A model generated the notes under the pieces. That model searched no databases. It was not told the origin of the DNA and saw only the letters and a list, made by a program, of their open reading frames with translations. Made by a program: the position numbers and the translations under genes. 64,000 nt of DNA from Minisyncoccota bacterium (GTDB lineage Bacteria > Patescibacteriota > Minisyncoccia > Phycocordibacterales > Phycocordibacteraceae), in contig JAQVIY010000001.1 in assembly GCA_028695415.1 (NCBI GenBank), positions 46,784 through 110,783 of the forward strand, in the 5' to 3' direction. Shown here piece after piece: positions 1-15,544 of this stretch. Each line of letters begins with the position of its first letter. The stretch's first letter is position 1.

Positions 1-1513
1 AGATTTTCTCCAAAGTAATCTTTTTTACTGCTCCTTGATATGCCTCAAGTTCGTCAATATTCAGAAAATATACTTTCAACTTCTTTATTCCTGGGCAGCC
101 ACCGACTTCCAGGAGATCTAACTCCGTTTCTATAATCTCCTTATAAAGATTGGAGGAGACCATAGGAACATCCAAGAAAACAATCACCGGGATCAATTTC
201 TTCCAGCGAAAAATCTTAAGCTCATCATGATCAGGAATGTCTTGTATGCGCTGATACATTTGCTTTATGCTCCCTACCATTTTGGCAACTTCCTTCTTAA
301 GAAGTTCTTTCTCTCCCGTTCGTTTAGCCAGTAATGGGAACTGATAGGCTTTTACCTCAAACAAATATACCTTCCATCGACCTGAACGCACCCAGAAATC
401 AATAAACTTAGCTTCGGCCTTTCCTTTCTTGTAATGAATCTCTCCGAAAACATTCTCTTCACCATAAATACCCTTCAGAATTAATCCGACGTAGCTTTCG
501 AAAACACTGCCAAAATAATCTCGAAAATCGCGATGAGTGCCTTTTGCAAAGAAATACTCATGGAACCACCAATATAGGCCTGCAAAGCCTTTCTTTAGAG
601 CGAATATAATATTAGGAACTACATACGGATCTTCGGAGGGAATATTCGTCTTTATAATTGGATAAATTTGAAGGGGGTTGAATCGAGTCTTGGTGTTCTC
701 AGGCAGTAGGCCTTCATTCATCCGTTTATCTTCTTCTTTGAAGAGGTTGTAATCGGCAGACAGCATATCGAGAAATTTCGATACCTTCTCATCAGTCAGG
801 ACTGATTTTAGAGAAGGAATCGCAGCCTGGGTTAAAGACTCTTTCCTAAAAGTTCCTGTCTTTTGTGCGCAAGCAAATACCGCCATAACCAAAAAGAAAT
901 ACTCAGAAATAGTTAAGCCGACTTCTCGTTCGAAGATTGTTGAGAGGTTCTCAAACTTAACAGGCTGAATTTCATTAATTATCTTGGTGAAAATAACAAT
1001 GTTCCTTGATATGGCTAGCGCTGGATTAAATTGAAGCTCAAGCTGCTCGCTATGCATTCGAACCATTAAGGATGGGAAATCTTTTCGATCAAAAGGCTTG
1101 GAGGGGTCTCTGATCAATTCAGGCATAACAAGGCTATTGCTGTATATATTGCAAAGGGTCAATATGTTTTGCCGATCAGTGATCTGCTTCTTGTATTTAT
1201 AGTCGTTGGCCCTTGAGACCAAGAGAATATTTGCAAGATACGCAAGTGCAAACTGCGTAATAAAAACTCCGTAGGTTGGATCTCTATAGCCTCCTTTCCC
1301 GATTTTGTCCGGACTTTTTGAGTTGAATATCGCACTAGAGACGCGGCCAAGAGCTACTAGACCATTACGGAGATCGTATTTTCCCAAAACCTCAAGAAGC
1401 TCTTCTTCAGAGACTCTCTTTTCATCACTACGAGCGAGATTGCTTATATCTGCATTAGCCCACAAGACCTTTGAAGATTGAGATGCCGTGTCGTGTATTT
1501 CGGGTGAGGGCAT
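1..1513 (-). CDS. Hypothetical protein, 5'-partial at the window edge (>=504 aa). AT-rich. C-terminal region carries a possible PD-(D/E)xK-like motif (IDFWV...LFEVKAY)
   Basis: Manual translation of the reverse strand from ATG at 1513 gives an uninterrupted frame to position 1. Absent from the ORF track because it runs off the edge. Confidence 0.5.
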   Translation of the reverse strand, partial: MPSPEIHDTASQSSKVLWANADISNLARSDEKRVSEEELLEVLGKYDLRNGLVALGRVSSAIFNSKSPDKIGKGGYRDPTYGVFITQFALAYLANILLVSRANDYKYKKQITDRQNILTLCNIYSNSLVMPELIRDPSKPFDRKDFPSLMVRMHSEQLELQFNPALAISRNIVIFTKIINEIQPVKFENLSTIFEREVGLTISEYFFLVMAVFACAQKTGTFRKESLTQAAIPSLKSVLTDEKVSKFLDMLSADYNLFKEEDKRMNEGLLPENTKTRFNPLQIYPIIKTNIPSEDPYVVPNIIFALKKGFAGLYWWFHEYFFAKGTHRDFRDYFGSVFESYVGLILKGIYGEENVFGEIHYKKGKAEAKFIDFWVRSGRWKVYLFEVKAYQFPLLAKRTGEKELLKKEVAKMVGSIKQMYQRIQDIPDHDELKIFRWKKLIPVIVFLDVPMVSSNLYKEIIETELDLLEVGGCPGIKKLKVYFLNIDELEAYQGAVKKITLEKI

Positions 1514-1563
1514 AGGTCCAAAAGTCTGGCAGCAGTTTTGTTATGATAATCGTAAATTAAGTT

Positions 1564-1872
1564 ATGAAAAGACCCTCCCCAAGGCAGATGCGATATGCGT
1601 ACGGTCTTATGAATTTCCATAGATCTAAGCGACAAGTTGCCCTGGATGCGGGGTTCGCGGAGAGCACCGCCAGAGTGCCGAAATTAATCGAAAACAAGGC
1701 TGGTTTTAAGCTCGCAATGGCTCAATTGGCCGGTGAGACAGAGAATGTGTCCATGAAGCTCATGTTTGAATTGCAGGCACGTGATCTGGGGGAGATGAGC
1801 AATGACGATCTCCTACATTCTCTTGAGGTAATGTCCCGCGTTCACGAGAGATTTACCTCTAAATCCATCTAA
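1564..1872 (+). CDS. Phage terminase small subunit-like HTH protein (Terminase_2-like N-terminus)
   Basis: N-terminus PSPRQMRYAYGLM...ALDAGFAESTARV..LIENKA matches the TerS pattern LTPKQ..F...Y....A..AGYS..TA. Confidence 0.4.
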   Translation: MKRPSPRQMRYAYGLMNFHRSKRQVALDAGFAESTARVPKLIENKAGFKLAMAQLAGETENVSMKLMFELQARDLGEMSNDDLLHSLEVMSRVHERFTSKSI

Positions 1873-2104
1873 GCTCAAAACGTGGTACAGTTTTTAGGTG
1901 CTCCCAGTTGAATAAGAAGACCTAACCCGCCAGCTGTGGCTGTCGGTATGGTCGAAAGTCCTTGGAAGATAGAAAACCCATCATGTGGGCCTGTCTTCCA
2001 AGGCCATAGCGGGAAACCGTTATGGGAGGCGCAAGCCTCCACCCACGTGGTGGGTTTTTTGTATACCTACCACCCCATTAATTCTTCAAAATTATCTTAC
2101 ATAT

Positions 2105-2308
2105 ATGGAGGCACAAAAACCTGTGAGTCGATTGAGTTGGGGGCAATACTTATTTGTTGGCGTGGCTATGCTAATCGTTGGTTTTTCGATAACTAATACT
2201 TACGCCGATACTTCCGTCATGTGGAACGTAGGGGCAGGAGTACAGCTCGTAGGATGGGGTTTCTTTATAACAGGCGTAGTGCGCGGGGTAAAAGGAAGAA
2301 CAAAATGA
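2105..2308 (+). CDS. Small 2-TM membrane protein
   Basis: Internal ATG of ORF 1985..2308; two hydrophobic helices. Confidence 0.3.
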   Translation: MEAQKPVSRLSWGQYLFVGVAMLIVGFSITNTYADTSVMWNVGAGVQLVGWGFFITGVVRGVKGRTK

Positions 2309-2796
2309 ATATAAATAAACATTCGTTGTTGGGAGTAGTGATGATAATACCCATCGCACTTATCGTCGCTCTGCACCCAATTCCAGCAAAAGCTTCACTA
2401 CTTTTTCCTGGTTTTAGCTTTCCTTGCCCGGCTGAGATTGGTTGTACAAAAGAACAAACACAGGCACGTGTGCAACTACAGAAACAAGCGGCATACGACG
2501 CGGGATGCCAGAGTTACATAGATAGTCATGGTGGTCACGGCACCTCTGTGTCTGCAAGCGACGGCAGCGAGTGCAAGACGACATGCAGCACCGGATACCA
2601 TCTGAATGCAGTAAACGCGTGCGCTCCAAACACAACAGTTGCTCCGGCTACTTCAAATCAATCGGTATCGCAGAGCGGAAAATATGCCTCCGGGCTTACG
2701 ACACAGCAGATAAATGCCATCGTCGTGCTACTGCAAGCGTTTGGGGCGAGTCAGACGGTCATTGTTCAAGTCGAGGCCGCTTTGCGAGGAAAATAG
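2305..2796 (+). CDS. Secreted Cys-rich hypothetical protein (signal peptide)
   Basis: MNINKHSLLGVVMIIPIALIVALHPIPAKA signal-like N-terminus; AT-rich island. Confidence 0.35.
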   Translation: MNINKHSLLGVVMIIPIALIVALHPIPAKASLLFPGFSFPCPAEIGCTKEQTQARVQLQKQAAYDAGCQSYIDSHGGHGTSVSASDGSECKTTCSTGYHLNAVNACAPNTTVAPATSNQSVSQSGKYASGLTTQQINAIVVLLQAFGASQTVIVQVEAALRGK

Positions 2797-2800
2797 GAAC

Positions 2801-3046
2801 ATGCTCTATTTTCTGCTAATTGTGATCGCTGTTGGTGTGCTTCTCATTTCTCCTGCTGGAAAAAAGATTCTGAAGTGGGCGGCAATAATCGCAGTTATAG
2901 CAGCGGCCCTAAGTGCTGCCGTATTAGGGATCATGTTGATTTCTGAAAAATACGGAGGAACTTGGGGCATACTCGCAGGACTTGCTTTGCTGGGGCTAGT
3001 GCTCAGGATGTTTGGGTTCGGACAGGATGATAAATCCACTGGTTAG
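2801..3046 (+). CDS. Small membrane protein (2-3 TM)
   Basis: MLYFLLIVIAVGVLLI... hydrophobic; internal ATG of ORF 2714..3046. Confidence 0.3.
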   Translation: MLYFLLIVIAVGVLLISPAGKKILKWAAIIAVIAAALSAAVLGIMLISEKYGGTWGILAGLALLGLVLRMFGFGQDDKSTG

Positions 3047-3359
3047 ATTTGCATACCAGAAACGGACACGGTAAACTGACTGGAGTTCATTGAATGTCTC
3101 CCTATCAAATATAGCGGTAATCCGCCACCCAATCTGACAGCCGTGCGACTCTTCGCATAACGAATATAACAGCCACGCGACTTTTCTCTTCGCGAAACTA
3201 TCAAACAAGCAGACAGTCTATGAACGCCTTATTCACAAGGTGTTTTCTTGTATTTATTGCGAGAAGCGCTGTTAGTAATGCTTGTTTCTTGCAGTAGCTC
3301 TGGGTGAAGCAAAATCCGCCACCTGGAGCTACTAGAGGGCACGCGGATAAAAAAATCAC

Positions 3360-5363
3360 ATGGCAAATCATGAGAATTCTCTCGTGGCCAAATTTGGGCA
3401 CGAAAAGCGATGGGTTAATTGGAAGTACGAAGAGCGAGACGGGAAAATTACCAAGGTGCCGTATGCGGTTAACGGCAAAAGGGCTTCTAGCGTTGACTCT
3501 TCCACGTGGAGCACTTATGCCGAAGTTTCCAGGATAAGTAGCAACGTAGGGATTATCTTCACCGAGGATCAACGCCTCCTTGGGATCGATATAGACCACG
3601 TTGTTGAAGATGGTGTGGTGAGCGACGATATTCAGCGCTTTATAGACGCTGCGGAAACATATACGGAAATCTCGCCCAGCGGCACAGGCCTGCACCTGTT
3701 CTTGGCGGTAACAGAGCCTCTCTCACTGACAAAGCACAAGAAAGCGCCCTACGAGCTGTATACCTCAAAACGGTTCTTCACGGTCACTAGGAACGAGTTC
3801 ACGGACTCGCCTGTGCGGACTGTTACGCCTGAAGAGGCTCTGAGGCTTCTCGCAATCATTGGTTATCCGTGGAACAAAGATGAGCCGGAAGCGCCAGCGG
3901 CGGTGCTTGGCGGCGGTGTCAGGCCACCTGCGTTGCCGCCCATGGCCGACGAGGAGCTTCTTGAGAAGATGTTTGCCTCGAAGAATGGGCACACGATAAG
4001 AGCTCTCTACCGAGGCGATATATCGAGCTACGAAAACGACGATTCTCGTGCTGACATGGCACTCTGCGCCCATCTCGCCTATTGGACGCACAATGACGGG
4101 GCTCAGATGGAACGTATATGGCTTGCCTCAGGGCTTGGACAAAGAGAAAAGACTCAGGGCCGGAAGGATTACCGTGAGCGAACGATTGCAGCCGCGATAG
4201 AGGGTAATGCCCAAGCGCGGTCTGAGAAGAACGTGCCTCAAAAGAGCCATGGGGCACAATCGGTTGGCGCGCAAGCGATAACCATCCGTATGTCGGATGT
4301 GCAGCCTAAGCCTATTGAATGGCTGTGGTTCGGACGTATAGCTCTCGGCAAGCTCACGATCATTGCCGGAGATCCGGGGCTCGGTAAGAGCCTTACTACT
4401 ATCGACATGGCGGCAAGGGTGTCGAAGGGCTGTGCATGGCCACTCGAAGGCTCTCTAGCGCCCCTGGGTAACGTGGTATTCCTCTCTGCTGAAGACGATC
4501 CGGGAGACACAATCAGGCCTCGTCTTGACGCTGCGGGTGCGGATTGTTCGCGCGTGCATGTAATTCAGGCGATCAGGGACGCGAATGAGGAAGGCAGACC
4601 GATGGAGCGAATGTTCTCGTTCAGAAAAGATATTACCGTCCTCGAAGATCTGTTGCGTACGCTCTCGGACTGCCGTCTTCTCGTGATTGACCCTGTGTCG
4701 GCATATTTGGATGGAACGAAAAGTCACGAGAACGCAGAGGTGCGACAAGTCCTGGCTCCGCTTGCTAAGCTGGCGGCGGATTTCGGTGTCGCGGTTGTCG
4801 TGGTGCAGCACCTCAACAAAAACAGCGGAGATAACGCCATGTACCGCTCAATGGGCTCTATCGGCTTTGTTGCTGCTGCCAGAGCCGCCTATATCGTTAC
4901 CAAGGACAAGGATAACCAGGAGCGTAGGCTGGTGATGCCGATCAAAAATAATCTCGCGAAAGATACGCTCGGTCTGGCCTACTCGGTCGTCGAGGCCTCA
5001 AACAGAGCTCCTATGCTCGTGTGGGAGTCTGAGGCAGTAACAATTACGGCCGACGAAGCATTGGGCCGCTCAGACTCCGATGAAGAAAAGACAAAAATTG
5101 AATGGGCGATACAGGTGCTGGAGGTTGTGCTCGCGGACGGCCCGGTTGCGGCGACAGAAGTTAATCGTGAAGCAAGACAGGCTGGCATATCCCAAAGCAC
5201 GCTGCACCGCGCGAAGGACAAGCTAGGCGTAAAACCGAAGAAAGCCAGTTTCAAGGATGGGTGGGTATGGTCGTTGCCCAACCGCGAAGGTGTTCAGATA
5301 AGCGAAGATGCCACACCTAAAGAGGTGGGTATCTTGGGGATGGATGAACACCTTGGTGAATAG
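3360..5363 (+). CDS. Fused DNA primase/polymerase (Prim-Pol N-terminus, PriCT-like middle) plus RecA-like/AAA_25 RepA-type helicase, C-terminal wHTH. Typical of phage/plasmid/satellite replicons
   Basis: DxD motif GIDIDH; P-loop GDPGLGKS; VVFLSAEDD; LVIDPVSAYL; VVVVQHLNK. Confidence 0.8.
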   Translation: MANHENSLVAKFGHEKRWVNWKYEERDGKITKVPYAVNGKRASSVDSSTWSTYAEVSRISSNVGIIFTEDQRLLGIDIDHVVEDGVVSDDIQRFIDAAETYTEISPSGTGLHLFLAVTEPLSLTKHKKAPYELYTSKRFFTVTRNEFTDSPVRTVTPEEALRLLAIIGYPWNKDEPEAPAAVLGGGVRPPALPPMADEELLEKMFASKNGHTIRALYRGDISSYENDDSRADMALCAHLAYWTHNDGAQMERIWLASGLGQREKTQGRKDYRERTIAAAIEGNAQARSEKNVPQKSHGAQSVGAQAITIRMSDVQPKPIEWLWFGRIALGKLTIIAGDPGLGKSLTTIDMAARVSKGCAWPLEGSLAPLGNVVFLSAEDDPGDTIRPRLDAAGADCSRVHVIQAIRDANEEGRPMERMFSFRKDITVLEDLLRTLSDCRLLVIDPVSAYLDGTKSHENAEVRQVLAPLAKLAADFGVAVVVVQHLNKNSGDNAMYRSMGSIGFVAAARAAYIVTKDKDNQERRLVMPIKNNLAKDTLGLAYSVVEASNRAPMLVWESEAVTITADEALGRSDSDEEKTKIEWAIQVLEVVLADGPVAATEVNREARQAGISQSTLHRAKDKLGVKPKKASFKDGWVWSLPNREGVQISEDATPKEVGILGMDEHLGE

Positions 5364-5374
5364 GAGGAATTCAC

Positions 5375-5560
5375 TTGGGCATGATCGATCTGGTCGAATT
5401 CAAGCAGTTACTGAGCCCCGAGGTGCGTGCTTTGCCTGAAAAGGAGATTGAGCGTATCCGTGAGCTTCAGTACGGCTTTGCTAACGCCATATTTGAGATG
5501 TGGCTTAGGGATCGTCACACCTCGTCCATCGAAGAAAATGAGAACAACACTAAAAGCTGA
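5375..5560 (+). CDS. Small hypothetical protein
   Basis: 61-aa ORF between primase and recombinase. Confidence 0.25.
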   Translation: MGMIDLVEFKQLLSPEVRALPEKEIERIRELQYGFANAIFEMWLRDRHTSSIEENENNTKS

Positions 5561-5703
5561 TATACTACGTAGGTACACAACTTCATACCGAGAGCTTTTT
5601 TATTGCCTGATTAAAATAATCGGGCACGGAAAGGGGCTAAGGTTGTTCAGCGTCTCTCGGGATGTTGTGTACACCAACCTTAGTCCCTTTTTGTATTCCA
5701 CTT

Positions 5704-7566
5704 ATGAAGTCTGCTGAAAAAATAAATGTCATCGGGCACTGCCGAGTGAGCTCTTCAAAACAAGCGCAAGAAGGCGAAAGCCTTAGCGTGCAAGAAGGAA
5801 TCGTTCGTGCGCACGCCGAGCGGAATAATTGGAACATGGTGAAGGTGTGGCACGAGAGCTACTCGGGCCGAAAAGAAACTCGGCCAGTATTTAACGAAAT
5901 TCTTACTTACCTCGATTCTCATCCGAGGCAGATTGAATACTATGTCTTTCGTACCATTGATCGCTTCACGCGCGGTGGTACGGGGATGTATGACCAAATG
6001 AGGAAGGAGCTCTTGAAGCGTGGTGTGGCAATGGTTGATACGAGCGGAATGATTCAGAAATCAAAAAATACTCTTGAGGATTTAGATTTTGAATATTCAT
6101 GGAGCCGTCATTCTCCGAGCGAGATCACGGAAGTTGTGGTAGCGACCACTTCAAAACAAGAAGTAACCAATATTGAGACTCGTATGATTGGGCAAGAGAT
6201 CCGATTAACGCAACAGGGGTACAAGGTTCGACACGCGCAAGACGGCTTCTTGAATACCAAGATTTACGATACCGACGGCAAGAAGCGCACGGTGATGATT
6301 GAGGACCCTATCCGCGCCAAGTATCTTCAGGCAATGTTCGAACTTCGTGCAGAAGGTCAGTTGAGTGATTCAGAGATCGTGAGTCGGGTAAATGCAATGG
6401 GATACCGCAGTCGAGCGCACAAGAAATGGGACAAGAGCCACACGAGAATCCTTGGCGCGGGCGGTGGAAAACTGCTTACGGTGAAGCATTTGCAGGAAAT
6501 CATCCAGCGCCCCATTTACGCAGGTTTAATTTGCGAGAAATGGACGAAGCATAAGCCGGTGAAGGCAAAGTTTGACGGCCTAGTGTCCGTGAACATTTTC
6601 AACAAGGCAAATAGAGGAAAGGTCTTCATAGAAGAAAAAGATGATGGGTCTTATGGAATTCTGTACGACCACTATCCCGATCGTGTCGTCGTGAAGAGAA
6701 TGCGAGACAACCCGCTATTCCCGTATAAGTCGGTGGTGATGTGCCCAGAATGCGGGAAGCCGTTCATGGGAAGTCGCTCACGAAGCAAGAGCGGCAATCC
6801 CGTGCCGTATTACCATTGTTCGCGCAAACACAAGTGGATTGGGTTCAATAAGTCTGCGTTTGAGAAGACAATCGAAGATTATGCGAACCGGCTTTATTTC
6901 TTGCCGGACGAGACAACGAGCATGAAGGCCTCGCTGAAGCACCTGTATAACGAGCGTAAGTCAGAAATCGCTCGTGAGACGGTATCTATGGAGGAAAATG
7001 TCGCTGAGCTAAAGATCCAAAAGAAAGAGGCTTTAGAGGCGTTTAAGGCAGCCACAAGTGAGGTAGTGCGCCGCGAGCTCGAAAGAGATATTGAGCAGCT
7101 TGAGACTCGCATCAACGGATCCGGCGCGGAGCACGCAAGTCTCAAGATTACGGAGTCAGATATCGATGCTTTCATGGAGTACGCAAAAGGCATAATGGAA
7201 CACCCAGCAAAAGCGCTATTGAATACAGTAAATGCGCGCCATCAGGAGTCTCTTTACTCTGTGGTATTCGACGAACTGCCATCTATTACGGAGATGGCTA
7301 ATGGAACACCTAAATTGTCTTGGATTTTCAGGCTTTCTGAGGAATCTCAGACACCTAAATCTGTGTTGGCGGGCCCACTAGGAATCGAACCTAGGCTGTC
7401 GGTTTTGGAGACCGATGTACTACCATTATACGATGGACCCTTCGCACTCACGTACGATACCAGACGCTGGGATGGTTTACCACGAGCGATTTATCCCAAA
7501 CGCAGTCGAGGGGAGTCGAGTGGGGAAAGCCGTCCCAGGCAGGGCGATGCGCGGTATGATAGAGAT
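5704..7566 (+). CDS. Large serine recombinase (resolvase N-domain, recombinase domain, zinc ribbon, coiled coil). No in-frame stop: the frame reads antisense through tRNA-Trp and into the next gene
   Basis: Catalytic motif INVIGHCRVSSSKQ; zinc ribbon CPECGKPF...YYHCSRKHKW. ORF track shows a continuous frame 5662..8466. Confidence 0.8.
7367..7440 (-). tRNA. tRNA-Trp (anticodon CCA), CCA encoded
   Basis: Minus strand GGGTCCA TC GTAT AATGGTA GTAC A TCGGT CTCCAAA ACCGA CAGC CTAGG TTCGATT CCTAG TGGGCCC G CCA. Cloverleaf folds, G73. Confidence 0.85.
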
Positions 7567-8466
7567 ATGCGTTCTCGCACTTCACTCTTCGCGCTTCTGC
7601 TTGTGGCGGGTTTGTTTATAGTACCCGCTATTGCCTCTGCACAAAGCGTACCGTTTTTCGGCCCCATCATCCCCCAGGAAGCTAATCAGGGGCTGTGCCC
7701 GGCGAGTTGGGGTATGGTCATCATCGTCATCAATCGGATTATCGCGTTCATGATCACGCTCGCTATTGTCTTCGTCGCGCCTTTAATGATTGCCTATTCC
7801 GGATTCCTCTTCGTCGTGAATCCTGTAAACGCGAGCGGGAAAGAGAAGGCGAAAGAAATTTTACGGAACACCGTTATCGGCATCGTCATTGCACTCTCGG
7901 GCTGGATGATCGTCGATGCGCTTATGGCGGTGCTCTATAACCCAGGCAATGCTGGCGGGACATGGATGACTATTATCAGGGGAAATACTGCCGATGTGTG
8001 CCTCCCGCAGAAAGGAGCGTTACCTAGCGGTACATTGAATCAAACCGGCACGGTAACGAATGTAGGAGTAAGTCCCGGCGCTGCTACGGGAAGATATACG
8101 TTTGATCCGGGCATAGCCGTACAGACGAAAGACGAATCAGGCCCGCTCTCGAGCTTGCTCTCCTGTATGGCGGGGAAATTACCGGCAGGTGTTGGTAGGA
8201 TTTCCTCGATTTCTGATAGCCTTATAACAAGCGGTCAGAAGACTTTTGCGCAGTGTGCAACGGGTGGCTGTCAGCATCAGGCAAACTCGTGTCATTATGG
8301 AGGCAAGACCTGCATTGGCAGCTCGTATGCCGTTGATTTCGGTGATGATGAAAACATCACAATACTCACGGCCGCTGCAAAGGCTTGCGGTGCTCAAACC
8401 CTCAATGAAGGGACGCATCTGCACGCGAGCGTCGGTGCCGTGAGCGGTTGCGGTTGCGGTCTCTAA
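7567..8466 (+). CDS. Secreted/membrane protein: Sec signal peptide, two TM helices, Cys/His-rich C-terminal domain
   Basis: MRSRTSLFALLLVAGLFIVPAIASA signal peptide. In frame with the upstream recombinase ORF. Confidence 0.5.
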   Translation: MRSRTSLFALLLVAGLFIVPAIASAQSVPFFGPIIPQEANQGLCPASWGMVIIVINRIIAFMITLAIVFVAPLMIAYSGFLFVVNPVNASGKEKAKEILRNTVIGIVIALSGWMIVDALMAVLYNPGNAGGTWMTIIRGNTADVCLPQKGALPSGTLNQTGTVTNVGVSPGAATGRYTFDPGIAVQTKDESGPLSSLLSCMAGKLPAGVGRISSISDSLITSGQKTFAQCATGGCQHQANSCHYGGKTCIGSSYAVDFGDDENITILTAAAKACGAQTLNEGTHLHASVGAVSGCGCGL

Positions 8467-8467
8467 A

Positions 8468-9322
8468 TTAGGACATAGGGTGTCCTAATTTGCGCAGCCA
8501 AGCTTTCTGGCGGCGGGCGTATTGCCAGAGCTTCGCCGAAAGTTTGGGTAACAGTTCAGCCTTCAGTCGCGCCGCGTCCTCCGTAGCTTTAGCGGAGGAG
8601 GACAGATATTCACCGACAATCTTGTATTCGAGCCCGAGCTCGTCAAGACGTGCGTCGCTGGTTTCTTCTCGTACCCGGCGCACTTCGTCAATAAGCCCGC
8701 GCTCAAAGGCGTTTGCGAGACGCGTATCTATTTTCTTTCGTAATTCTTCTCTTGGCGGGTCAATTACTATCCATTCCACCTCATATTTCCCGAGGTTCGA
8801 CCTCGGGGGAACTGCTCCTTGTGCAATGATGATTTCGAGTGCCCGGATGAGCCTCCGTCTGTTCTTCGGGTCAAGTTCGGCGGCGCGGCGGGGATCACGT
8901 TCCTCAATCTGTGCATACAGTTCCTCGTTCGTACATTTCTCCAACTCTTCGCGCAGCGCGGGGTTCGCGTCAGTATTTGCGGGGAGTCCGTGCAGGAGCG
9001 CATCAAAGTAGAAATGAGTGCCGCCAACGAGTATCGGCAGCTTACCTCGTGCGGTTATCTCGTCGATAAGGTGCGTTGCGTCTTGTACAAAGTCTCCTGC
9101 AGAATAATTCTCATTCGCATCGCGAATGTCTATAAGGTGATGGGGCACGCCGCACATCTCCTCAGCCGTGATCTTCTCCGTGCCGATATCGAGCCCGCGA
9201 TACACCTGGCGAGAGTCGACGGAGATAATCTCGCCGTCGCGAGCAAGCGCCTCTTCGATCGCCCGGGAGGATTTACCCGAGGCGGTCGGGCCTATGATGC
9301 ATAGAATGTGGGTACCGGTCAT
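8468..9322 (-). CDS. miaA: tRNA dimethylallyltransferase
   Basis: GPTASGKS P-loop; VDSRQVYRGLDIGTEK. Confidence 0.9.
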   Translation of the reverse strand: MTGTHILCIIGPTASGKSSRAIEEALARDGEIISVDSRQVYRGLDIGTEKITAEEMCGVPHHLIDIRDANENYSAGDFVQDATHLIDEITARGKLPILVGGTHFYFDALLHGLPANTDANPALREELEKCTNEELYAQIEERDPRRAAELDPKNRRRLIRALEIIIAQGAVPPRSNLGKYEVEWIVIDPPREELRKKIDTRLANAFERGLIDEVRRVREETSDARLDELGLEYKIVGEYLSSSAKATEDAARLKAELLPKLSAKLWQYARRQKAWLRKLGHPMS

Positions 9323-9479
9323 GCTAAGGACTATACGTCCTATGCCCAGTAGGACAAAATGGCATCGTGCTCCCGCGATACATTTTTATTGCCCTCGGAA
9401 CCCTTTGTGTGTAAAATTGCTGCATGAGAATCATTATCCACTGGCACAGGAAAGCTATGCCATTTAGTCCTCACTGGGT

Positions 9480-10139
9480 ATGAAAGAGACCAAGAGCAAC
9501 TATTGCGAGTATTGCGGCGAGTTCCACGACTTCGTCCACGACCATACGTCGCTCGTGAAGGTGGGCGAGTCAGTGCCGGACTTCGAGTTTGAGGCCTACC
9601 ACAACGACAAGACAGTAACGATGAGTCTCTCGCGCCTGCGCGGTAAGTGGGTCGTACTTGTCTTTTATCCCGCCGACTTCACCTTCATCTGTCCGACTGA
9701 GCTCGAAGAGCTTGCGGCGCTGTACCCGAACTTTCAGAAGCTCGGTGCCGAGATAATCTCGATCTCGACCGACACGGTCTTCACGCATAAGGCGTGGCGC
9801 GACGTCTCGCCGAATATCAAGAAGATAGGATACCCGATGGCGGCCGACCCGTCGGGCAAGATGGCAGACGCGTTCGGTGTACTCATTGAAGGCAATGGGC
9901 CGGAGCTCACGCCAGACGAGGGGCTCGCGCTTCGCGGCACCTTTATCATCGACCCAACCGGCACACTCCGTTCAATGGAGATCAATGATAACTCTATAGG
10001 ACGCAAGGGAGCTGAGACGCTGCGCAAGCTCCAGGCGGCGCAATTTGTGGATACCCATAAAGGTGTGGTGTGCCCGGCCTCGTGGGAGCCGGGAGACGAT
10101 ACGCTCGAGCCAGGCATGGACCTCGTCGGGAAGCTGTAG
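9480..10139 (+). CDS. Peroxiredoxin (AhpC/TSA 2-Cys family) with short Cys/His-rich N-terminal extension
   Basis: FTFICPTE peroxidatic Cys motif; resolving Cys VCPA near C-terminus. Confidence 0.8.
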   Translation: MKETKSNYCEYCGEFHDFVHDHTSLVKVGESVPDFEFEAYHNDKTVTMSLSRLRGKWVVLVFYPADFTFICPTELEELAALYPNFQKLGAEIISISTDTVFTHKAWRDVSPNIKKIGYPMAADPSGKMADAFGVLIEGNGPELTPDEGLALRGTFIIDPTGTLRSMEINDNSIGRKGAETLRKLQAAQFVDTHKGVVCPASWEPGDDTLEPGMDLVGKL

Positions 10140-10386
10140 GCCCTGCTTCGCCAAGGCTACGCAGGGCTACTTCGCTGTGTGTGCACTTCGTAGCTCCATT
10201 TCTGAATGGAGCGAAGTAGTGCCGGGAGAGGCTTGGTCACGCTTTACTAATTCGCTTCGCTCATAAGTATGCGCGACCCCGCCTCGCGACGCTCGGGGAC
10301 TCGCGTATCGCTCCGGCTTTCAAGTCTCTCACGCACGGTGCGCAGGCACCGTGCTTCCCGGCACAGCTTTCGCTTCGCTCAATCTG

Positions 10387-10467
10387 TGCCGGGAGAGAGA
10401 CTTGAACTCTCATGTCTTTCGACGAGGGGTTTTGAATCCCTTGCGTATACCATTTCGCCATCCCGGC
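10387..10467 (-). tRNA. tRNA-Leu (anticodon CAA), type II with long variable arm
   Basis: Minus strand GCCGGGA TG GCG AAATGGTATA CGC A AGGGA TTCAAAA CCCCT CGTCGAAAGACAT GAGAG TTCAAGT CTCTC TCCCGGC A. Confidence 0.75.
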
Positions 10468-10500
10468 AGCGCCCTTCGAAGCTTTACGCGAAGTAGGGCA

Positions 10501-11523
10501 ATGAATTCTAGAGTACCATATGCTAAAATTGTTTTACATATGAATGATGACGCGGCGTATATCCCGACAAAATATGATTCGATCTTCTGGATTGATGTCG
10601 ATCGTATCATCCCGAATCCGTACCAGCCGCGCAAGGTCTTTACCGAAGAGGGGTTGAAGTCGCTCGCAGACAGCATCCGCCAGTACGGCGTGCTCCAGCC
10701 GCTCGTGGTCTCGCGCACCGAAGTCGAGAAGCCGGACGGCGGGCTCGAAAGCCTCTATGAGCTCGTCGCGGGTGAGCGGCGCTTGCGCGCGAGCAGGCTC
10801 GCGGGATTGAAACAAGTGCCGGTCGTTATCCGTCAGGGCGACAACAATCTCACCAAGCTCGAGCTCGCCATCATCGAGAACCTCCAGCGCGAAGACCTGA
10901 ACGCGGTTGACCGCGCGAAGGCGCTCCAGCGGCTCATCGATGAGTTCGGCATCTCACACGCCGAGACTGCCGCGAAGATAGGCAAGAGCCGCGAATATGT
11001 CTCGAACTCTATCCGCCTCCTCTCGCTCCCTGAATATATTCAGGAGGCCATTATCTCGAAAGAAATAAACGAGGGGCACGCCCGCCCCTTGCTCACGCTC
11101 AACAGCCGCCCCGAAGAGCGCGACACGCTCTTCAAGGAGATAACGCTCAAGAAGCTCTCCGTGCGCGCCGCCGAGCGCATCGCGCGCTCCATCGCGCAGG
11201 AGCGCGTGCGTTCGCGTCATCGCAAGTCGCCTGAAATGGTTGAGATAGAGAAATCGCTTACCGAAAGTCTCGGCACGCGCGTCATTATTGAGACGAATGC
11301 CGAGGGCGGCCGTCTCCTTATTGATTTCTTTTCTCCAGACGATCTTCAGCAGCTGGTTGACGCTCTCGCCGCAGAACAACAGGCAGTCGAGATGGCGCCA
11401 AAGGAGGAGGATGCGTATCCGCTATTTCCCAATACCACCCAAGTGTCCGATGATCCGATCGCGCCCGCGGCGCCCGAAGAGACCGAAGACGAGCTCTACT
11501 CGGTCTCCAATTTCAGCGTGTAG
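10501..11523 (+). CDS. parB: Chromosome partitioning protein ParB/Spo0J
   Basis: ParB N-domain GERRLRA with HTH. Start placed after tRNA-Leu; the track ORF start at 10351 overlaps the tRNA. Confidence 0.8.
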   Translation: MNSRVPYAKIVLHMNDDAAYIPTKYDSIFWIDVDRIIPNPYQPRKVFTEEGLKSLADSIRQYGVLQPLVVSRTEVEKPDGGLESLYELVAGERRLRASRLAGLKQVPVVIRQGDNNLTKLELAIIENLQREDLNAVDRAKALQRLIDEFGISHAETAAKIGKSREYVSNSIRLLSLPEYIQEAIISKEINEGHARPLLTLNSRPEERDTLFKEITLKKLSVRAAERIARSIAQERVRSRHRKSPEMVEIEKSLTESLGTRVIIETNAEGGRLLIDFFSPDDLQQLVDALAAEQQAVEMAPKEEDAYPLFPNTTQVSDDPIAPAAPEETEDELYSVSNFSV

Positions 11524-13132
11524 CTTTCTTCTTTGTCGCTCGATGTGCGCGCCGGACGCGCCCGGGCTTTGATGGTTCGGTCATGCCGAGCGCGCTGCGG
11601 ATATTTCGGCGCGCGAGCGAGGTGCGTACGAACTCAAGCCACTTCGCCGAAGGTTTGGCGGAGTCGCGACGTTGTATCTCCACGATGTCTCCGTTGCCGA
11701 GCTTGGTCTCGAAGGAGACCAGCTTGCCATTGACTTTGGCACCCTGAGCGTGATCGCCGAGATCGCTGTGTATCGCATAAGCGAAGTCTATCGGCGTTGA
11801 ATCTGCAGGGAGATCGATAACGTCGCCCTCCGGAGTAAAGACGAATACGCGGTGTGAGAAGAAATCCTCCTTGAGCCCTTCGACGAATTCTTCAGAACCC
11901 ATGATGTCAGTATGCGCCTCGGCGAGTTCGGCGAGCCAGGGGGGGACGACGTGGTTCGTATCACTCCCCTCGGTCTCTTTTTTCGATATCTTCATAAGCG
12001 AGGGAACGAGCGAGCGCACCCACGAGAACGAGAGCGATGAGAAACGGCTTTTTTGTTCGGCCTTCTCCAGTTTAGAGACATCCTTACCCAATTGCTTGTA
12101 GGTCATATGTGAGGCGATACCGAACTGCGCGCTCCGGTGCATCTCTTCGGTGCGAATCTGTATTTCGACAATACCTGCCTCGGGGGTGACGACGGTCGTG
12201 TGGAGCGACTGATAACCGTTCGGCTTCGGAAAGGCGATGTAATCTTTGAACTCGCCCGGCAACGGGCGATAGAGCGCGTGTACGATACCGAGCGTCGTAT
12301 AGCAGTCCTCAACCGACGGCACGACGAACCGCAGTGCAGCGATATCGTGAATGAGGTTGATGTCGTCATTTTTCCGCTTCAGTTTCTGATGCAGACTCCA
12401 GAGCCCTTTCATGCGGATATCAGAGCTGAATTTTGACAACCCTTTCTTCGCGAGCTCTTTCTTGATCTCTTTTTGCACCTTCAAGAGCCCGTCTTCGGTC
12501 TCGCGCGTTTTCAATTTGCGTACCTCGGCAGCATGCGTCGCGGCGTCAGGGTCGACGAAAGGGAAGGCAAGATCTTCGAGGGTACTCTTCATCTTACCCA
12601 TGCCGAGACGATCGGCGATCGGAGCATAGATTTCTAGAGTCTCGAGCGCGATGCGCCGGCGCTTGTGCTCAGGCACGTGTTCCAAGGTTTGCATATTATG
12701 CTTGCGGTCGGCGAGCTTCACGATGAGCACGCGGATATCGCTCGCCGTCGCGACGAGGAGCCGGCGGAGCGACTCGGCATGACGCTCTGCGCCGCGATAC
12801 TTATGCGTACCGAGCTTCGTCACGCCGTCGATGATGAAAAGAAGTTCTTTCCCGAATTCTTTTTCTATTTCTTCGCGTGATGCCTTGCCGTCTTCAACGA
12901 CATCGTGCAGGAGTCCGGCGGCGATGGTGGTAGCGTCCATTCCGTATTCGGCAAGCGTCTTTGCGGTCGCGGCGGGGTGGACGAAGTAGGGTTCGCCCGA
13001 GAAACGAGATTGACCCTCGTGCGCCTTCTTAGAGAGTTCATAGGCTTTCTCAACGAAGGCGATATCGGTAGGCGAGGCACCCCGCATCAGAGCCGTAATC
13101 TCCTTGAGCGTCGTCATCGTCATTGCCGACAC
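11513..13132 (-). CDS. rel: Bifunctional (p)ppGpp synthetase/hydrolase (RelA/SpoT family)
   Basis: HD domain HDVVED; RelA_SpoT synthetase region; TGS-like C-terminus. Confidence 0.85.
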   Translation of the reverse strand: MSAMTMTTLKEITALMRGASPTDIAFVEKAYELSKKAHEGQSRFSGEPYFVHPAATAKTLAEYGMDATTIAAGLLHDVVEDGKASREEIEKEFGKELLFIIDGVTKLGTHKYRGAERHAESLRRLLVATASDIRVLIVKLADRKHNMQTLEHVPEHKRRRIALETLEIYAPIADRLGMGKMKSTLEDLAFPFVDPDAATHAAEVRKLKTRETEDGLLKVQKEIKKELAKKGLSKFSSDIRMKGLWSLHQKLKRKNDDINLIHDIAALRFVVPSVEDCYTTLGIVHALYRPLPGEFKDYIAFPKPNGYQSLHTTVVTPEAGIVEIQIRTEEMHRSAQFGIASHMTYKQLGKDVSKLEKAEQKSRFSSLSFSWVRSLVPSLMKISKKETEGSDTNHVVPPWLAELAEAHTDIMGSEEFVEGLKEDFFSHRVFVFTPEGDVIDLPADSTPIDFAYAIHSDLGDHAQGAKVNGKLVSFETKLGNGDIVEIQRRDSAKPSAKWLEFVRTSLARRNIRSALGMTEPSKPGRVRRAHRATKKKATR

Positions 13133-13147
13133 TATACACCGGCAAAT

Positions 13148-15544
13148 CTATTTCAGGTATTCAGCAGCTTCAGCGGGAGAGAGGGTGTCAGGTTTGATGG
13201 TGTCGGGGAGATAGATACGGCGAAGACCCTTCTTCAAGAAGAGACCTTGCTTTGATTTATAGAGTGTCATCGTCTTACCCGTCTTGGGGTGTTTGCCGAT
13301 TTCGCGCACGATCTCGACGCCTTTGGGCGGCTGCTTGGGAGTGGCGAGAAGTGCGAGCGCTGTATCGAGCGTGACGGTGTAGGGGTCGCCGATGGCGGGC
13401 TTCAGCGAGCGGAACTCGCCGTCCGAGCCGACATAGGGGCCGAACTTGCCGGTCGAGGCGAATACCGGCTTACCGGTAGAAGGATGCATCCCGAGCTCGC
13501 GCGGAAGCGAGAGATACTTGAGCGCGTCAGCGAGCGTGACCTGTGCGAGGTCGGTACCGGCGGGGATGCTCGCGCGCCGCGCGGCGGTCTTCGGTCGGCC
13601 TTTTTTACCCTTCGTAGCCTTTGGCGAAGAGGGGGCCGGTTCTTCACTCTCGGGTAGCGCCATCTCCACATACGGTCCGAATCTGCCGGTCTTTATATAA
13701 ATAGGCGCGCCTGTTTTCGGATCATGTCCGATAGGTTCGTCGCCCTTGAGCTCGTGACCCTCTTCGGTGCGCGCGCCGAGACAGTCGGGGTATTTCTTGC
13801 AACTCATAAATACACCGCCGCGGCCGAGCTTCATTTCCATAGCGCTGCCGCAGAGCGGGCAGGGGAACTCTTTCGGTGCATCGCCAAGCGCGGTTGCCTT
13901 TGGCAATTTGTCTTTTGTTTGTATCGCCTTCTCAAACGGTCCGTAAAAGGCAGATAGGGTCTCGGTATAGCCGCGCTCGCCGCGCGCTATCTCGTCGAGC
14001 TCATTCTCCATCTCAGCGGTAAATGTGTCGCTCACGTATTCGGGGAAATTTTCTTCGAGCCAGCCCGAGACGACCATACCAGTCGCGGTCGGCTTCAAGG
14101 CGCGAGCGAGCTTCTCGACGTAGCCGCGATCTTGGATTGTCTTCATTATCGACGCGTAGGTAGAGGGGCGACCGATGCCTCGTTTCTCTAGTTCTTTTAT
14201 CAATCCGGCTTCGGTGTAGCGGTTGGGCGGCTCGGTCTGCTTTTCTTCGCTGCCTATCGAGAGAAGCGCGAGCGGGTCGCCCTCGGCGAGATGCGGGAGC
14301 TCTACATCTTCGCCGCGCGCTTTCGTATCGAGCGCGAGCCAACCGGGGAAGAGGACGCGCGATCCGTTCGCGGTAAAGAGAGGTATCTCGGCGTCCGCTT
14401 GCGCAGAGATGGTAACGCGCAACACCTGCGCGCTTGACATCATTGAGGCGAGAGCGCGGGTGCGGATAAGCGCGTAGAGCGCGGTCTCGTCGGGCGTTGC
14501 GCCCGCATGCGCGTGCGACGCGTCGGTGGGGCGGATAGCCTCGTGCGCCTCCTGAGCGTTCTTGCTCGAAGTCTTATACGCGCGCACCCGCAGATACTCT
14601 TTCCCGAATTCTTTTTCAACGACGCTCGCCATCTTCGCGACAGCTTCTTTCGCGAGATTCACCGAGTCGGTGCGCATATAGGTGATGTGCCCTGCCTCAT
14701 AGAGCTTCTGTGCGGCACGCATCGTGCGCGAGGGCGCGAAGCCGAGGCGTGTCGACGCCGCCTGTTGGAGCGTGGAGGTAGTGAAGGGCGGGCGCGGATT
14801 GCGCTCTTCTGATTTCTCACTCACCTCCGCGACTTTCCACGAAGCGCTCCTGCCGGCGTTCACTATCCGATCTGCTTCTTCGTGCGTGCTTGGTTTCTCG
14901 ACGCAGGTGGTATTCAAAGTAATCGAACCTTTTGATTTAGTTTTGAAATCGGCATTCAAGACGAAATAGGTCTCGGGTACGAATGCCTTTATCTCTCGTT
15001 CGCGTTCGGCGAGAATACGGAGCGCGGGCGACTGTACGCGACCGGCCGAGAGTCCATAGCGCACCTTCTTCCATATGAGCCCCGAGAGGTCGTACCCCAC
15101 GATGCGATCGAGCACGCGCCGCGCTTCTTGCGCGCGTCGCAAATGCTCATCAATAGCGCGCGGGTGCGCGAGTGCCTCTTCGATGGCTGCCTTGGTGATC
15201 TCGTGGAAGACGACCCGCTGCGGCTTCTTCAACCCTGCGACCTCCTTGATATGCCAAGCGATTGCCTCGCCCTCGCGGTCGGGGTCGGTTGCGAGATATA
15301 TCTCGTCGGCCTTGGCGGCGGCGCGCTCTATCTTCTCAATCACTTCGCGTTTCTCGGCGGGCACCACATAACGCGGCACGAAGCCGCCTTCGATGTCGAC
15401 GGCGTCTTTATTGCTCTTTGGCAAGTCGCGTATATGACCGACCGAAGCAAGGACGGTGTAGTCCTTGCCTAAGTAGTTGCCGATAGTGCGCGCCTTGGTC
15501 GGCGACTCGACGATAAGTAATCGGGTACCCATTCGTTCACTCAT
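13148..15544 (-). CDS. topA: DNA topoisomerase I
   Basis: TOPRIM N-terminus LLIVESPTKARTI; C-terminal zinc ribbons. Confidence 0.9.
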   Translation of the reverse strand: MSERMGTRLLIVESPTKARTIGNYLGKDYTVLASVGHIRDLPKSNKDAVDIEGGFVPRYVVPAEKREVIEKIERAAAKADEIYLATDPDREGEAIAWHIKEVAGLKKPQRVVFHEITKAAIEEALAHPRAIDEHLRRAQEARRVLDRIVGYDLSGLIWKKVRYGLSAGRVQSPALRILAEREREIKAFVPETYFVLNADFKTKSKGSITLNTTCVEKPSTHEEADRIVNAGRSASWKVAEVSEKSEERNPRPPFTTSTLQQAASTRLGFAPSRTMRAAQKLYEAGHITYMRTDSVNLAKEAVAKMASVVEKEFGKEYLRVRAYKTSSKNAQEAHEAIRPTDASHAHAGATPDETALYALIRTRALASMMSSAQVLRVTISAQADAEIPLFTANGSRVLFPGWLALDTKARGEDVELPHLAEGDPLALLSIGSEEKQTEPPNRYTEAGLIKELEKRGIGRPSTYASIMKTIQDRGYVEKLARALKPTATGMVVSGWLEENFPEYVSDTFTAEMENELDEIARGERGYTETLSAFYGPFEKAIQTKDKLPKATALGDAPKEFPCPLCGSAMEMKLGRGGVFMSCKKYPDCLGARTEEGHELKGDEPIGHDPKTGAPIYIKTGRFGPYVEMALPESEEPAPSSPKATKGKKGRPKTAARRASIPAGTDLAQVTLADALKYLSLPRELGMHPSTGKPVFASTGKFGPYVGSDGEFRSLKPAIGDPYTVTLDTALALLATPKQPPKGVEIVREIGKHPKTGKTMTLYKSKQGLFLKKGLRRIYLPDTIKPDTLSPAEAAEYLK

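Follow-up and report, generated by a model that had tools for sequence, protein, structure and literature searches.

The attP site of myxophage Mx8 is reported to lie in the integrase coding sequence, and integration produces a new 3' end and an altered protein (PMC6070905). 'Suicidal' integrases of the SSV1/pTN3 type, encoded by viruses or integrative plasmids, likewise carry the recombination site in their own gene; tyrosine integrases with an intragenic att site are reported to be exclusive to Archaea, the gene being split and the enzyme destroyed (PMC8371274). Among tycheposons and cryptic elements, tyrosine recombinases are found in 910 of 937 and large serine recombinases in the remainder, with a fragment of the transfer RNA (tRNA) gene duplicated (10.1101/2020.12.28.424599). 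For serine integrases, the motif of the zinc-ribbon domain is placed 5 bp nearer to the centre in attB than in attP (PMC3783163; Rutherford 2013). Plasmids of the candidate phyla radiation (CPR) were called 'rarely studied' in a 2025 survey (PMC12023590). In our literature search we came across no serine-integrase family whose gene contains attP, no T-loop targeting and no description of the CPR element family treated here. Here we describe an element with a large serine integrase, a primase-helicase and variable cargo next to the tRNA-Trp gene in a stretch of 64,000 nucleotides, hereafter the window, from a Minisyncoccota bacterium (GenBank assembly GCA_028695415.1, contig JAQVIY010000001.1, positions 46,784 to 110,783). 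Window positions 1-7374 and about 2.7 kb further leftward are probably an integrated copy, about 10.1 kb long, of a self-replicating integrative-element family of Patescibacteria, for which we use the term 'integrative episomes'.

Results

The layout of the locus was derived from a listing of open reading frames (ORFs), a tRNA scan with ARAGORN and base composition, and gene families were assigned with Pfam, PHROGs, NCBIfam and PADLOC. The 10-kb mobile island at the end of the tRNA-Trp gene is real. An exact-protein look-up retrieved a Logan contig of 34.8 kb (L001), which is identical to the window over positions 1-15363 and extends it by 6.6 kb to the left. Leftward of the window edge L001 carries the rest of an ORF of 601 amino acids (aa), the exonuclease VII genes xseB and xseA, a GIY-YIG gene, LMWPc/HIT and ClpB. 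In the empty locus L008, 38 nt separate tRNA-Trp from LMWPc/HIT, with ClpB coming next, whereas in L001 both genes lie 10.2 kb away from tRNA-Trp; about 10.2 kb have therefore been inserted after the tRNA gene. The host site was surveyed with one genome per species containing miaA, which gave 80 loci. Where named, these are labelled Candidatus Kaiserbacteria, Paceibacterota/Parcubacteria or Saccharibacteria, and most have the order ahpC-miaA-tRNA-Trp; the host genome of the island is Kaiserbacteria-like. The island is absent from about 78 of the 80 related species loci, a presence/absence polymorphism that a first-pass annotation of the window had proposed to look for, and an integrase adjoins tRNA-Trp in only one of them (L037, the same element as L006).

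The island spans L001 3926-14015, equivalent to window -2715 to 7374. Its left end thus lies outside the window, as the first-pass annotation had supposed, and its right end is formed by the attR core (Table 1) rather than by position 7566. The left part, beyond the window edge, also contains xseB, xseA and the GIY-YIG gene. The GC content amounts to 40.6% in 1-1513, 47.2% in 1514-3359, 54.2% in 3360-5363 (helicase) and 47.7% in 5364-7366 (integrase part), compared to 55.2% in the remaining window. The drop from 58% to about 40% that had been read for the whole of 1-3300 is thus confined to 1-1513; the adjacent segment has 47% and the rest of the window 55%. Long direct repeats were rejected as att sites: the only candidate, a 24-nt repeat at 71%, has a score that was reached by 162 of 300 shuffles, and its right copy overlaps a host motif, aACGATAnCAGA, which is kept 5' of tRNA-Trp in empty sites too.

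The recombination site was defined by a four-way comparison of attL, attR, the attP of the circular relative L090 and the attB of empty sites. A single block, the 6-bp GCGGGC, is common to all four. It joins the integrase 3' end to the tRNA in attR and the host terminator hairpin to an integrase tail in attL; in the attP of the circular relative it stands between integrase and tail, and in the attB of empty sites between terminator and tRNA. The predicted sites are CAGACACCTAAATCTGTGTTGGCGGGCTTACGAAGCCTGGGATGGAACACTCTCGAAGCG for attP and CCTCCTTATTTTATGCGGGCCCACTAGGAATCGAACCTAGG for attB. GCGGGC corresponds to the last four nucleotides of the acceptor stem, the discriminator base and the first C of CCA. 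It covers only the tRNA 3' terminus, and tRNA-Trp therefore stays intact. A second copy of the tRNA 3' end, which the first-pass annotation had suggested to search for, is limited to the 6-bp core, as expected for a serine integrase. The CCA end of tRNA-Trp (7367-7369, minus strand) is element-derived or falls within the common core, and the core-adjacent G may stem from either partner. The encoded CCA is supplied by the element side in L001, L002 and L005; most empty sites have no CCA.

These comparisons demonstrate that attP lies within the 3' end of the integrase gene and that integration swaps the native C-terminal tail for antisense-tRNA sequence. The C-termini of the integrase homologues fall into two classes, antisense-tRNA peptides (e.g. 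LAGPxGIEPxxSVLETDVLPL) and a native tail, LVRLxxLxWNTIExTIxxWK; among the 120 closest homologues many have the former and many the latter. In L001 an orphan native tail ending in AGLRSLGWNTLEATILRWKGIFGVHGAIL and a stop is located at 3926-4018, 117 nt from LMWPc/HIT, and coincides with the predicted left junction. The related island L002, whose integrase is 84% identical, has the same arrangement. Joining the island ends in silico yields an integrase with ...SQTPKSVLAGLRSLGWNTLEATILRWKGIF... at its end. The gene is thus represented by an orphan tail at attL (L001, L002), by an ORF running into the tRNA at attR and by an intact tail on circles. A left island boundary between xseB and the 601-aa ORF was ruled out by empty-site synteny and by the orphan tail. 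The possibility that the native tail is an antisense RNA gene was discarded as well: ARAGORN found no tRNA there (Rfam was not searched), and the third-codon positions vary between elements. This variation points to a constraint on the protein, except for the TGGAAC motif, which is constrained at the DNA level. In L088 (11645 and 12616) and also in L089, a native-tail integrase is accompanied by a second, orphan copy of the tail about 1 kb downstream; this double tail lies near the end of a 343-kb contig whose DNA has no CPR-like appearance.

A terminator-like hairpin, whose stems measure 12-23 bp, includes the 3' acceptor end of tRNA-Trp (L001 3880-3931; L002 about 2340-2390; L010 and L020). 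After integration the host terminator hairpin, core included, is found at attL, and the tRNA-Trp gene loses it; transcription of tRNA-Trp may therefore run antisense into the integrase gene int. The same site has been visited repeatedly by such elements, which decay in place, as evidenced by mini-islands of 0.6-2.9 kb without int in nine 'empty' Kaiserbacteria genomes (L018, L021, L023, L040, L056, L059, L061, L064 and L070), located 0.5-2.8 kb beyond tRNA-Trp. They extend between tRNA-Trp and an orphan tail, with one or two orphan integrase tails each, and their small cargo ORFs appear, as judged from the sequences alone, AbiEi/AbiEii-like (a pair), NUDIX-like and P-loop kinase-like. At this hot spot the mini-islands represent derivatives that have decayed or are non-autonomous.

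The att sites share a motif outside the core. In attP the 9-mer ATGGAACAC, which encodes W-N-T of the tail, starts 15 nt past the core, and in attB the antisense strand of the tRNA T-loop, ATCGAACCT (7384-7392, plus strand), starts 10 nt past it. TGGAAC in attP is thus situated 5 bp further out than the T-loop TCGAAC in attB, and the same 5-nt offset applies to the Glu, Lys and Arg classes. Counted manually from the G of GTPK, the tRNA-class motif falls on I28-E29 and the native-tail motif on W30-N31. A short core and a 5-bp shift of the zinc-ribbon-domain motif, here on the P'/B' side only, agree with the geometry established for serine integrases (PMC3783163), suggesting that what the zinc-ribbon domain recognises is the universal T-loop of tRNAs in attB and, in attP, its mimic TGGAAC. 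Such a mode of recognition would explain an easy retargeting among tRNAs.

Two further direct copies of the 9-mer are present in the integrase gene, 68 nt (site 2) and 174 nt (site 1) upstream of the core. With the third copy at L001 3957-3965 (WNT), there are three direct (A/T)T(G/C)GAACAC copies in three reading frames, each under a conserved protein motif; TGGAACAC occurs 4 times in L001 compared to 0.41 expected by chance. Codon usage at the motif was examined in 60 non-redundant family members against the background in the same genes. At site 1, Glu is encoded by GAA in 58/60 (background 59%) and His by CAC in 56/60 (42%); at site 2, Gly is encoded by GGA in 54/55 (28%) and Thr by ACA in 50/60 (27%). 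The spacing of 106 nt between the sites is kept in 56 of the 60, and the TG and TC variants co-vary (53 TG/TG, 4 TC/TC, 3 mixed). Near-frozen synonymous codons at both sites show selection on the DNA and not on the protein alone. We propose that the integrase, or the 59-aa protein encoded directly upstream of it, may bind sites 1 and 2 as accessory sites.

The integrase was already recognized as a large serine recombinase by the first-pass annotation. It matches Pfam Resolvase (4.5e-11), Recombinase (1.4e-5) and, just under the cut-off of that family, Zn_ribbon_recom (7.9e-5), as well as the integrase family phrog_95 (1.3e-38), and it possesses the catalytic domain, the recombinase domain and the zinc ribbon with coiled coil of large serine recombinases. 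The catalytic motif RVSS is kept in the homologues, with V15 and S16 invariant, as are the Cys and His residues of the zinc ribbon. A profile match to PDB sequences was obtained with the N-terminal domain (NTD) of TP901-1 integrase (1.3e-9); outside the NTD, no similarity to solved structures was detected. In the integrated state the ORF runs without a stop codon from 5662 to 8466 (934 aa). It crosses tRNA-Trp in antisense and enters, in frame, the gene beyond it, which starts at 7567 and encodes a secreted protein with a sub-threshold T4SS_pilin match (E 0.016, 15.7 bits against a cut-off of 26.6). The prediction of a public gene caller for this ORF is a single protein of 920 aa. Integrase homologues stop at variable distances past the tRNA, and the variable sequence of the replacement C-terminus argues that it is under no selection in the integrated state. 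An alternative genetic code is not needed to account for the 934-aa ORF, the homologues too reading through the tRNA with variable lengths.

An AlphaFold2 (AF2) model of a native-tail family member comprises the NTD (residues 1-135), an alphaE helix (138-170), the recombinase domain (182-303), the zinc ribbon (307-394), a coiled coil (400-474) and an extra helical domain (483-531). These are followed by a disordered linker (543-562; predicted local distance difference test, pLDDT, about 42), which overlaps the variable P arm, and by a tail helix (568-582; pLDDT about 85). The native tail WNTIExxILxWK is accordingly modelled as an amphipathic helix on a disordered linker. Because this helix is predicted to be tethered beyond the linker, integration would remove one helix and spare the catalytic and DNA-binding domains. 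An inverted repeat of 16 nt with 94% complementarity (5630-5645/5675-5690) spans the start region of the integrase gene downstream of a TG-extended promoter-like site (5538-5566); it could be an operator or attenuator of int.

The small ORF that had been noted between helicase and integrase encodes 59 aa. By tblastn, it is found directly 5' of int in at least 35 loci, circular relatives included, and its product has no family match. The 59-aa protein is a candidate integrase partner or directionality factor.

Among 8,000 candidates scored, 768 were homologous to the integrase at E ≤ 1e-5; the few with a named source are mostly from Patescibacteria. In 43 of 88 loci the integrase ORF runs antisense into a tRNA gene, 22 have native tails, and 23 are cut by contig ends or unclear. 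The tRNA targets of the 43 loci are Trp, Glu-CTC/TTC, Lys-TTT/CTT, Arg-GCG/TCT, Val and His, and the CCA end and acceptor stem of the respective target tRNA are imitated by each attP. Circular forms were seen in relatives. The native-tail integrase P0016 is encoded on a contig of 32,174 bp, the sequence of which recurs with a period of exactly 15,965 bp (0 mismatches in 5,811 nt), and the same element is present on an independent contig of 15,983 bp with an 18-nt terminal overlap; together, these contigs indicate a circle of 15,965 bp. This circle (L090 1-21776; L091 whole) encodes a Toprim primase, a 57-aa ORF, the integrase, Fur, ParA (CbiA), ZnuABC and YibE/F, and also DUF4238 and an XRE helix-turn-helix (HTH) gene. 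It is plasmid-like, with metal-uptake cargo and the same module of primase, 57-aa ORF and integrase as the Kaiserbacteria islands. A second contig (L132) has a length of 5,018 bp and a terminal overlap of 43 nt, giving a circle of about 4,975 bp. Besides a native-tail integrase it encodes a protein of the 59-aa family, here with 71 aa, as well as membrane ORFs and an HTH ORF of 129 aa; no replication gene is recognisable.

Islands at the same Kaiserbacteria site have in common a replication protein (Rep), the 57-59-aa ORF and the integrase. The Rep type varies (NrS-1-type, Prim-Pol/AAA_25 or Toprim), and so does the cargo, with TnsA-like/DUF2779 proteins, GmrSD and a SymE toxin, or unknown proteins. 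A census of 107 neighbouring proteins contained ResIII/DEAD helicases, SMC_N/AAA_15/AAA_21 ATPases, GmrSD, a methylase, RHS repeats and glycosyltransferases; an XRE-type HTH protein, present in 10 loci, formed the cluster listed first, and no capsid or portal family was among the 25 most frequent neighbour families. Two of the 107 proteins match phrog_2666, annotated as large terminase (E 1e-20). The integrase family has one distant match in IMG/VR, in a real phage contig with endolysin and tail gene, none in 50,697 phage genomes, and none at 1e-10 among deposited phage and plasmid records.

Table 1. Features of the island and its target in the window (positions of the whole stretch)
Feature	Position	Strand	Remarks
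GapS1-like cargo protein	1..1513	-	N-terminal 504 of 601 aa; full gene L001 6349-8154
HTH protein, 102 aa, small-terminase-like fold	1564..1872	+	CPR-specific family of about 103 aa; putative TerS-like packaging factor or regulator
Membrane/secreted ORF, 67 aa	2105-2308	+	Hydrophobic segments in translation
Membrane/secreted ORF, 163 aa	2305-2796	+	Hydrophobic segments in translation
Membrane/secreted ORF, 81 aa	2801-3046	+	Hydrophobic segments in translation
Replication protein	3360..5363	+	667 aa; primase-polymerase and NrS-1-type helix-bundle domain fused to AAA_25 (RecA/DnaB-like) helicase
Two-helix protein, 59 aa	5381..5560	+	Directly 5' of the integrase throughout the family
Large serine integrase	5704..7366	+	Conserved part, 554 aa; Pfam and PHROG matches
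Site 1 of ATGGAACAC	7195..7203	+	MEH codons of conserved MEHP
Site 2 of ATGGAACAC	7301..7309	+	NGT codons of NGTPK; other reading frame; 106 nt past site 1
attR common core GCGGGC	7369..7374		Crossover region, right island end
tRNA-Trp (CCA)	7367..7440	-	Integration target, intact; ARAGORN and alignment with empty sites

The remaining genes of the island largely correspond to the first reading of the window, which had listed the fused primase-polymerase/helicase, three small secreted/membrane ORFs and the adjoining tRNA-Trp (Table 1). The replication protein matches AAA_25 (1.6e-33), the helix-bundle domain of NrS-1 polymerase (PF22763, 5e-14) and the primase family phrog_1829 (2.4e-61); phrog_13901 and phrog_1829, described as primase or primase/helicase, both match at about 1e-60. 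A search for iterons or an origin near its gene gave only weak short repeats. The three hydrophobic ORFs have no family match. The large AT-rich protein at the left window edge had been correctly noted as AT-rich, but it is encoded on the minus strand and only part of it lies in the window. A guess that it is antiphage cargo gained some support from a match to NCBIfam NF047931 GapS1 (E 1.4e-21), which covers profile positions 72-427 of 455 but remains, at 76.9 bits, below the curated cut-off of 320; PADLOC gave no match. The antiphage protein GAPS1, of the PD-(D/E)xK type, has a phage capsid protein as its trigger (10.1101/2023.03.28.534373). The 601-aa protein may thus be a GapS1-like, putative PD-(D/E)xK antiphage protein, an assignment that is not conclusive. 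Outside the window, xseA matches TIGR00237 (6.9e-87) and xseB weakly TIGR01280, with a GC content of 45-47%. These two genes were not found near this site in any other locus examined and are treated here as island cargo.

The 102-aa protein had been annotated as resembling the small terminase subunit (TerS). It had no match in Pfam, PHROGs, PADLOC or NCBIfam and no significant one among PDB sequences with phmmer and hmmsearch, the outcome which the first-pass annotation had itself named as speaking against its reading, and tblastn found none in the 50,697 phage genomes. A profile search of the ~103-aa family among 5.8 billion proteins returned 276 matches at E ≤ 0.01. The best 120 of these are proteins of about 103 aa, from CPR where named, without any Pfam domain, and among the matches listed there is no sequence bridge to terminases. 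A sequence link to terminases was therefore rejected, nothing significant having emerged from any of these searches; the closest was a weak profile match to the SF6 small terminase (E 0.96). What stood of the TerS annotation is the predicted fold. The AF2 model (pLDDT 82) shows an HTH followed by two long helices. With Foldseek, small terminases were among the top nine matches in the PDB, namely the DNA-binding domain of SF6 (probability 0.93, E 0.3), NV1 and PaP3, and most named matches in BFVD were 'terminase small subunit' (best E 0.06). Small terminases rank first in three fold libraries, with all fold E-values above 0.05. The resemblance of the model to TerS is thus real at fold level and does not amount to family membership.

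By tblastn, the 102-aa gene was detected in L001 and L174 only, among the loci gathered at that stage, and it does not belong to the family backbone. Further CPR islands that encode a serine recombinase also contain the ~103-aa family, usually together with an AAA_25 Rep and defence-like cargo, and the 129-aa ORF of the circle L132 shares its HTH motif AG(F/Y)xxxTAxxPK. In the five contexts annotated with Pfam, no terminase or capsid Pfam domain was found in the neighbours of the ~103-aa gene, many of which had no match at all. The missing large terminase is expected for a satellite TerS and therefore does not speak against a satellite. The islands in question (L174, L175, L177 and L179) have other serine recombinases (L174, L177, L179) or defence-type genes. 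The recombinase of L174 is without the tail of the integrase family. In L174 and L179 the ~103-aa gene is located upstream of small ORFs, the Rep gene and the integrase; the L179 island is also inserted beside miaA, and its integrase gene is preceded by an excisionase-like gene of the HTH_17 type.

Discussion

The features of the locus can be combined into a life cycle. The conserved backbone of the element consists of a replication protein, here of the Prim-Pol/AAA_25 type, the 59-aa protein and the large serine integrase, and the variable rest is cargo, comprising the GapS1-like protein, exonuclease VII (xseAB), the GIY-YIG protein, membrane ORFs and the HTH protein with TerS-like fold. Recombination takes place within the 6-bp GCGGGC at the 3' terminus of tRNA-Trp and keeps the tRNA intact. 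The integrase loses its native tail, leaving it as an orphan at the far island end, and its ORF then runs antisense into the tRNA. Reading of the T-loop by the zinc ribbon may account for the retargeting among tRNAs of six isotypes (Trp, Glu, Lys, Arg, Val and His). The tail swap, the two extra TGGAAC(A)C sites and the 59-aa protein may modulate directionality or expression, and the excised element presumably replicates as a circle, as suggested by the relatives, of which the 15,965-bp form carries a Toprim primase and ParA. With ParA, metabolic genes and a plasmid-like appearance, this relative points to integrative episome as the general description.

Several observations weigh against this interpretation. 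Neither an excision junction nor an empty site was seen from this very population, and the activity of the island copy is suggested by its intact ORFs only. Some native-tail integrases (P0050, P0037) are located on contigs of several hundred kb, and a native tail alone is therefore no proof of an episome. In a manual reading, the P half-site of attP, likewise the B arm, has no inverted motif copy, unlike the attP of canonical serine integrases. The xseAB genes and the GIY-YIG gene could be an older, separate insertion. The roles assigned to the tail, to sites 1 and 2 and to the 59-aa protein are proposals.

A bolder extension of the integrative-episome interpretation is tentative, and we regard it as possible rather than probable. 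CPR-wide integrative episomes, some of them possibly satellites, would combine a divergent, T-loop-reading large serine integrase, an intragenic attP, removal of the tail helix, two extra TGGAAC(A)C sites and a 59-aa partner into an integration-state-dependent switch of directionality or expression.

The strongest rival overlaps with the integrative episome and differs from it in the transfer route only. In this scenario the island is a phage satellite resembling phage-inducible chromosomal islands (PICIs), which excises, replicates by its primase-replicase and has its DNA packaged by the TerS-like protein into capsids of a helper phage, with the GapS1-like protein as antiphage cargo. The first-pass annotation had chosen this label. 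Its description as an integrative island with integrase and primase-helicase was accurate, whereas the satellite label is not established and appears to us rather unlikely. An island of about 10 kb with integrase and primase-helicase falls within the 5-20 kb expected of satellites without virion or lysis genes and contains, as first annotated, no structural or large-terminase genes. The fold of the 102-aa protein with small terminases ranked first, its weak SF6 profile match, the recurrence of its family in CPR islands with serine recombinase and Rep, the similar HTH ORF on the circle of about 5 kb, defence cargo typical of satellites and the distant integrase relative in a real phage contig are all in line with a satellite. 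However, the fold E-values are all above 0.05, hidden Markov models (Pfam, PHROGs) gave no terminase-family match, and the 102-aa gene is absent from most family members. No AlpA/Stl-like regulator, capsid-remodelling gene or cos/pac evidence was found in the island; none of its ORFs matched AlpA, XRE or another regulator family in Pfam, PADLOC or NCBIfam, and XRE-type HTH proteins occur in other family members. The gene order is unlike that of PICIs, with int at the tRNA end and transcribed outward, and one relative is plasmid-like with ParA and metal-uptake genes. Furthermore, IMG/VR contains hardly any member of the family and the phage genomes contain none, and no helper phage is known.

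A decayed prophage remnant, in which integrase and replication genes are left from a temperate phage after loss of the structural genes, is very improbable. Temperate phages commonly encode serine integrases and Prim-Pol helicases, phage families give the best PHROG matches, and decayed islands without int exist at this site in other genomes; yet the backbone ORFs are all intact, a compact architecture of 5-16 kb without structural genes recurs in dozens of loci and on complete circles, and capsid and portal genes are missing from the most frequent neighbour families. The idea that these are conserved chromosomal genes adjoining a tRNA by chance, in favour of which only the absence of a long direct repeat could be cited, was tested and rejected on account of the genes missing from about 78 of 80 syntenic species loci, a GC content below that of the host, the orphan integrase tail at the far junction and the circular relatives.

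Mobile elements of Patescibacteria/CPR have barely been described, and the integrase family found here is large (768 homologues) and occurs in integrated and circular form. Through it, cargo genes for defence and metabolism reach the tRNA hot spots of very small genomes. Since its att sites can be written from the sequence alone for several tRNA targets, the family may furnish integration tools for genetically intractable organisms. It extends the arrangement 'attP inside int' from the tyrosine recombinases of Mx8 and SSV1 to serine integrases and suggests T-loop recognition by a zinc ribbon. An integration-state-dependent switch, if true, would be a mechanism unreported for serine integrases. 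Integrase, Rep and the TerS-like fold are also the first concrete candidates for asking whether CPR bacteria host phage satellites.

With PICIs and Staphylococcus aureus pathogenicity islands (SaPIs) the island shares its small size and position next to a tRNA gene, an integrase, a primase/helicase replicon, the lack of virion genes, a possible TerS-like protein and antiphage-type cargo. It differs from them in its serine integrase, in that AlpA/Stl/Str, capsid-size and packaging-redirection genes were not found in the island, in a TerS likeness confined to the fold and located outside the family backbone, and in having no known helper phage and one ParA-bearing, plasmid-like relative. The integrases of LI/A118, phiC31, Bxb1 and TP901-1 have the same succession of NTD, alphaE helix, recombinase domain and zinc ribbon with coiled coil, a short core and the 5-bp motif shift. 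Compared to these canonical large serine integrases, the present family has an extra C-terminal helical domain and a tethered tail helix, targets a tRNA 3' end instead of a protein-coding gene and shows the motif on the P'/B' half-sites only, with two extra direct copies 68 and 174 nt upstream.

The intragenic attP finds its parallels among tyrosine integrases. Mx8, a complete phage, encodes a tyrosine recombinase, whereas the enzyme described here is a large serine recombinase of a small episome, in which about 27 residues are swapped, family-wide and at many tRNA targets. The target of SSV1 is a tRNA gene as well; in contrast to the SSV1/pTN3 type, the catalytic and DNA-binding domains remain intact here and the C-terminal tail alone is exchanged. 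The tycheposons of Prochlorococcus are also integrative elements at tRNA genes of a streamlined genome, modular in structure, with a site-specific integrase, a primase/helicase and variable cargo including defence genes, and a subset of them is PICI-like. The family described here is set apart by its serine recombinase, a 6-bp core, an attP inside the integrase gene and a host of another phylum. By analogy of this kind, tycheposons are its nearest ecological counterpart.

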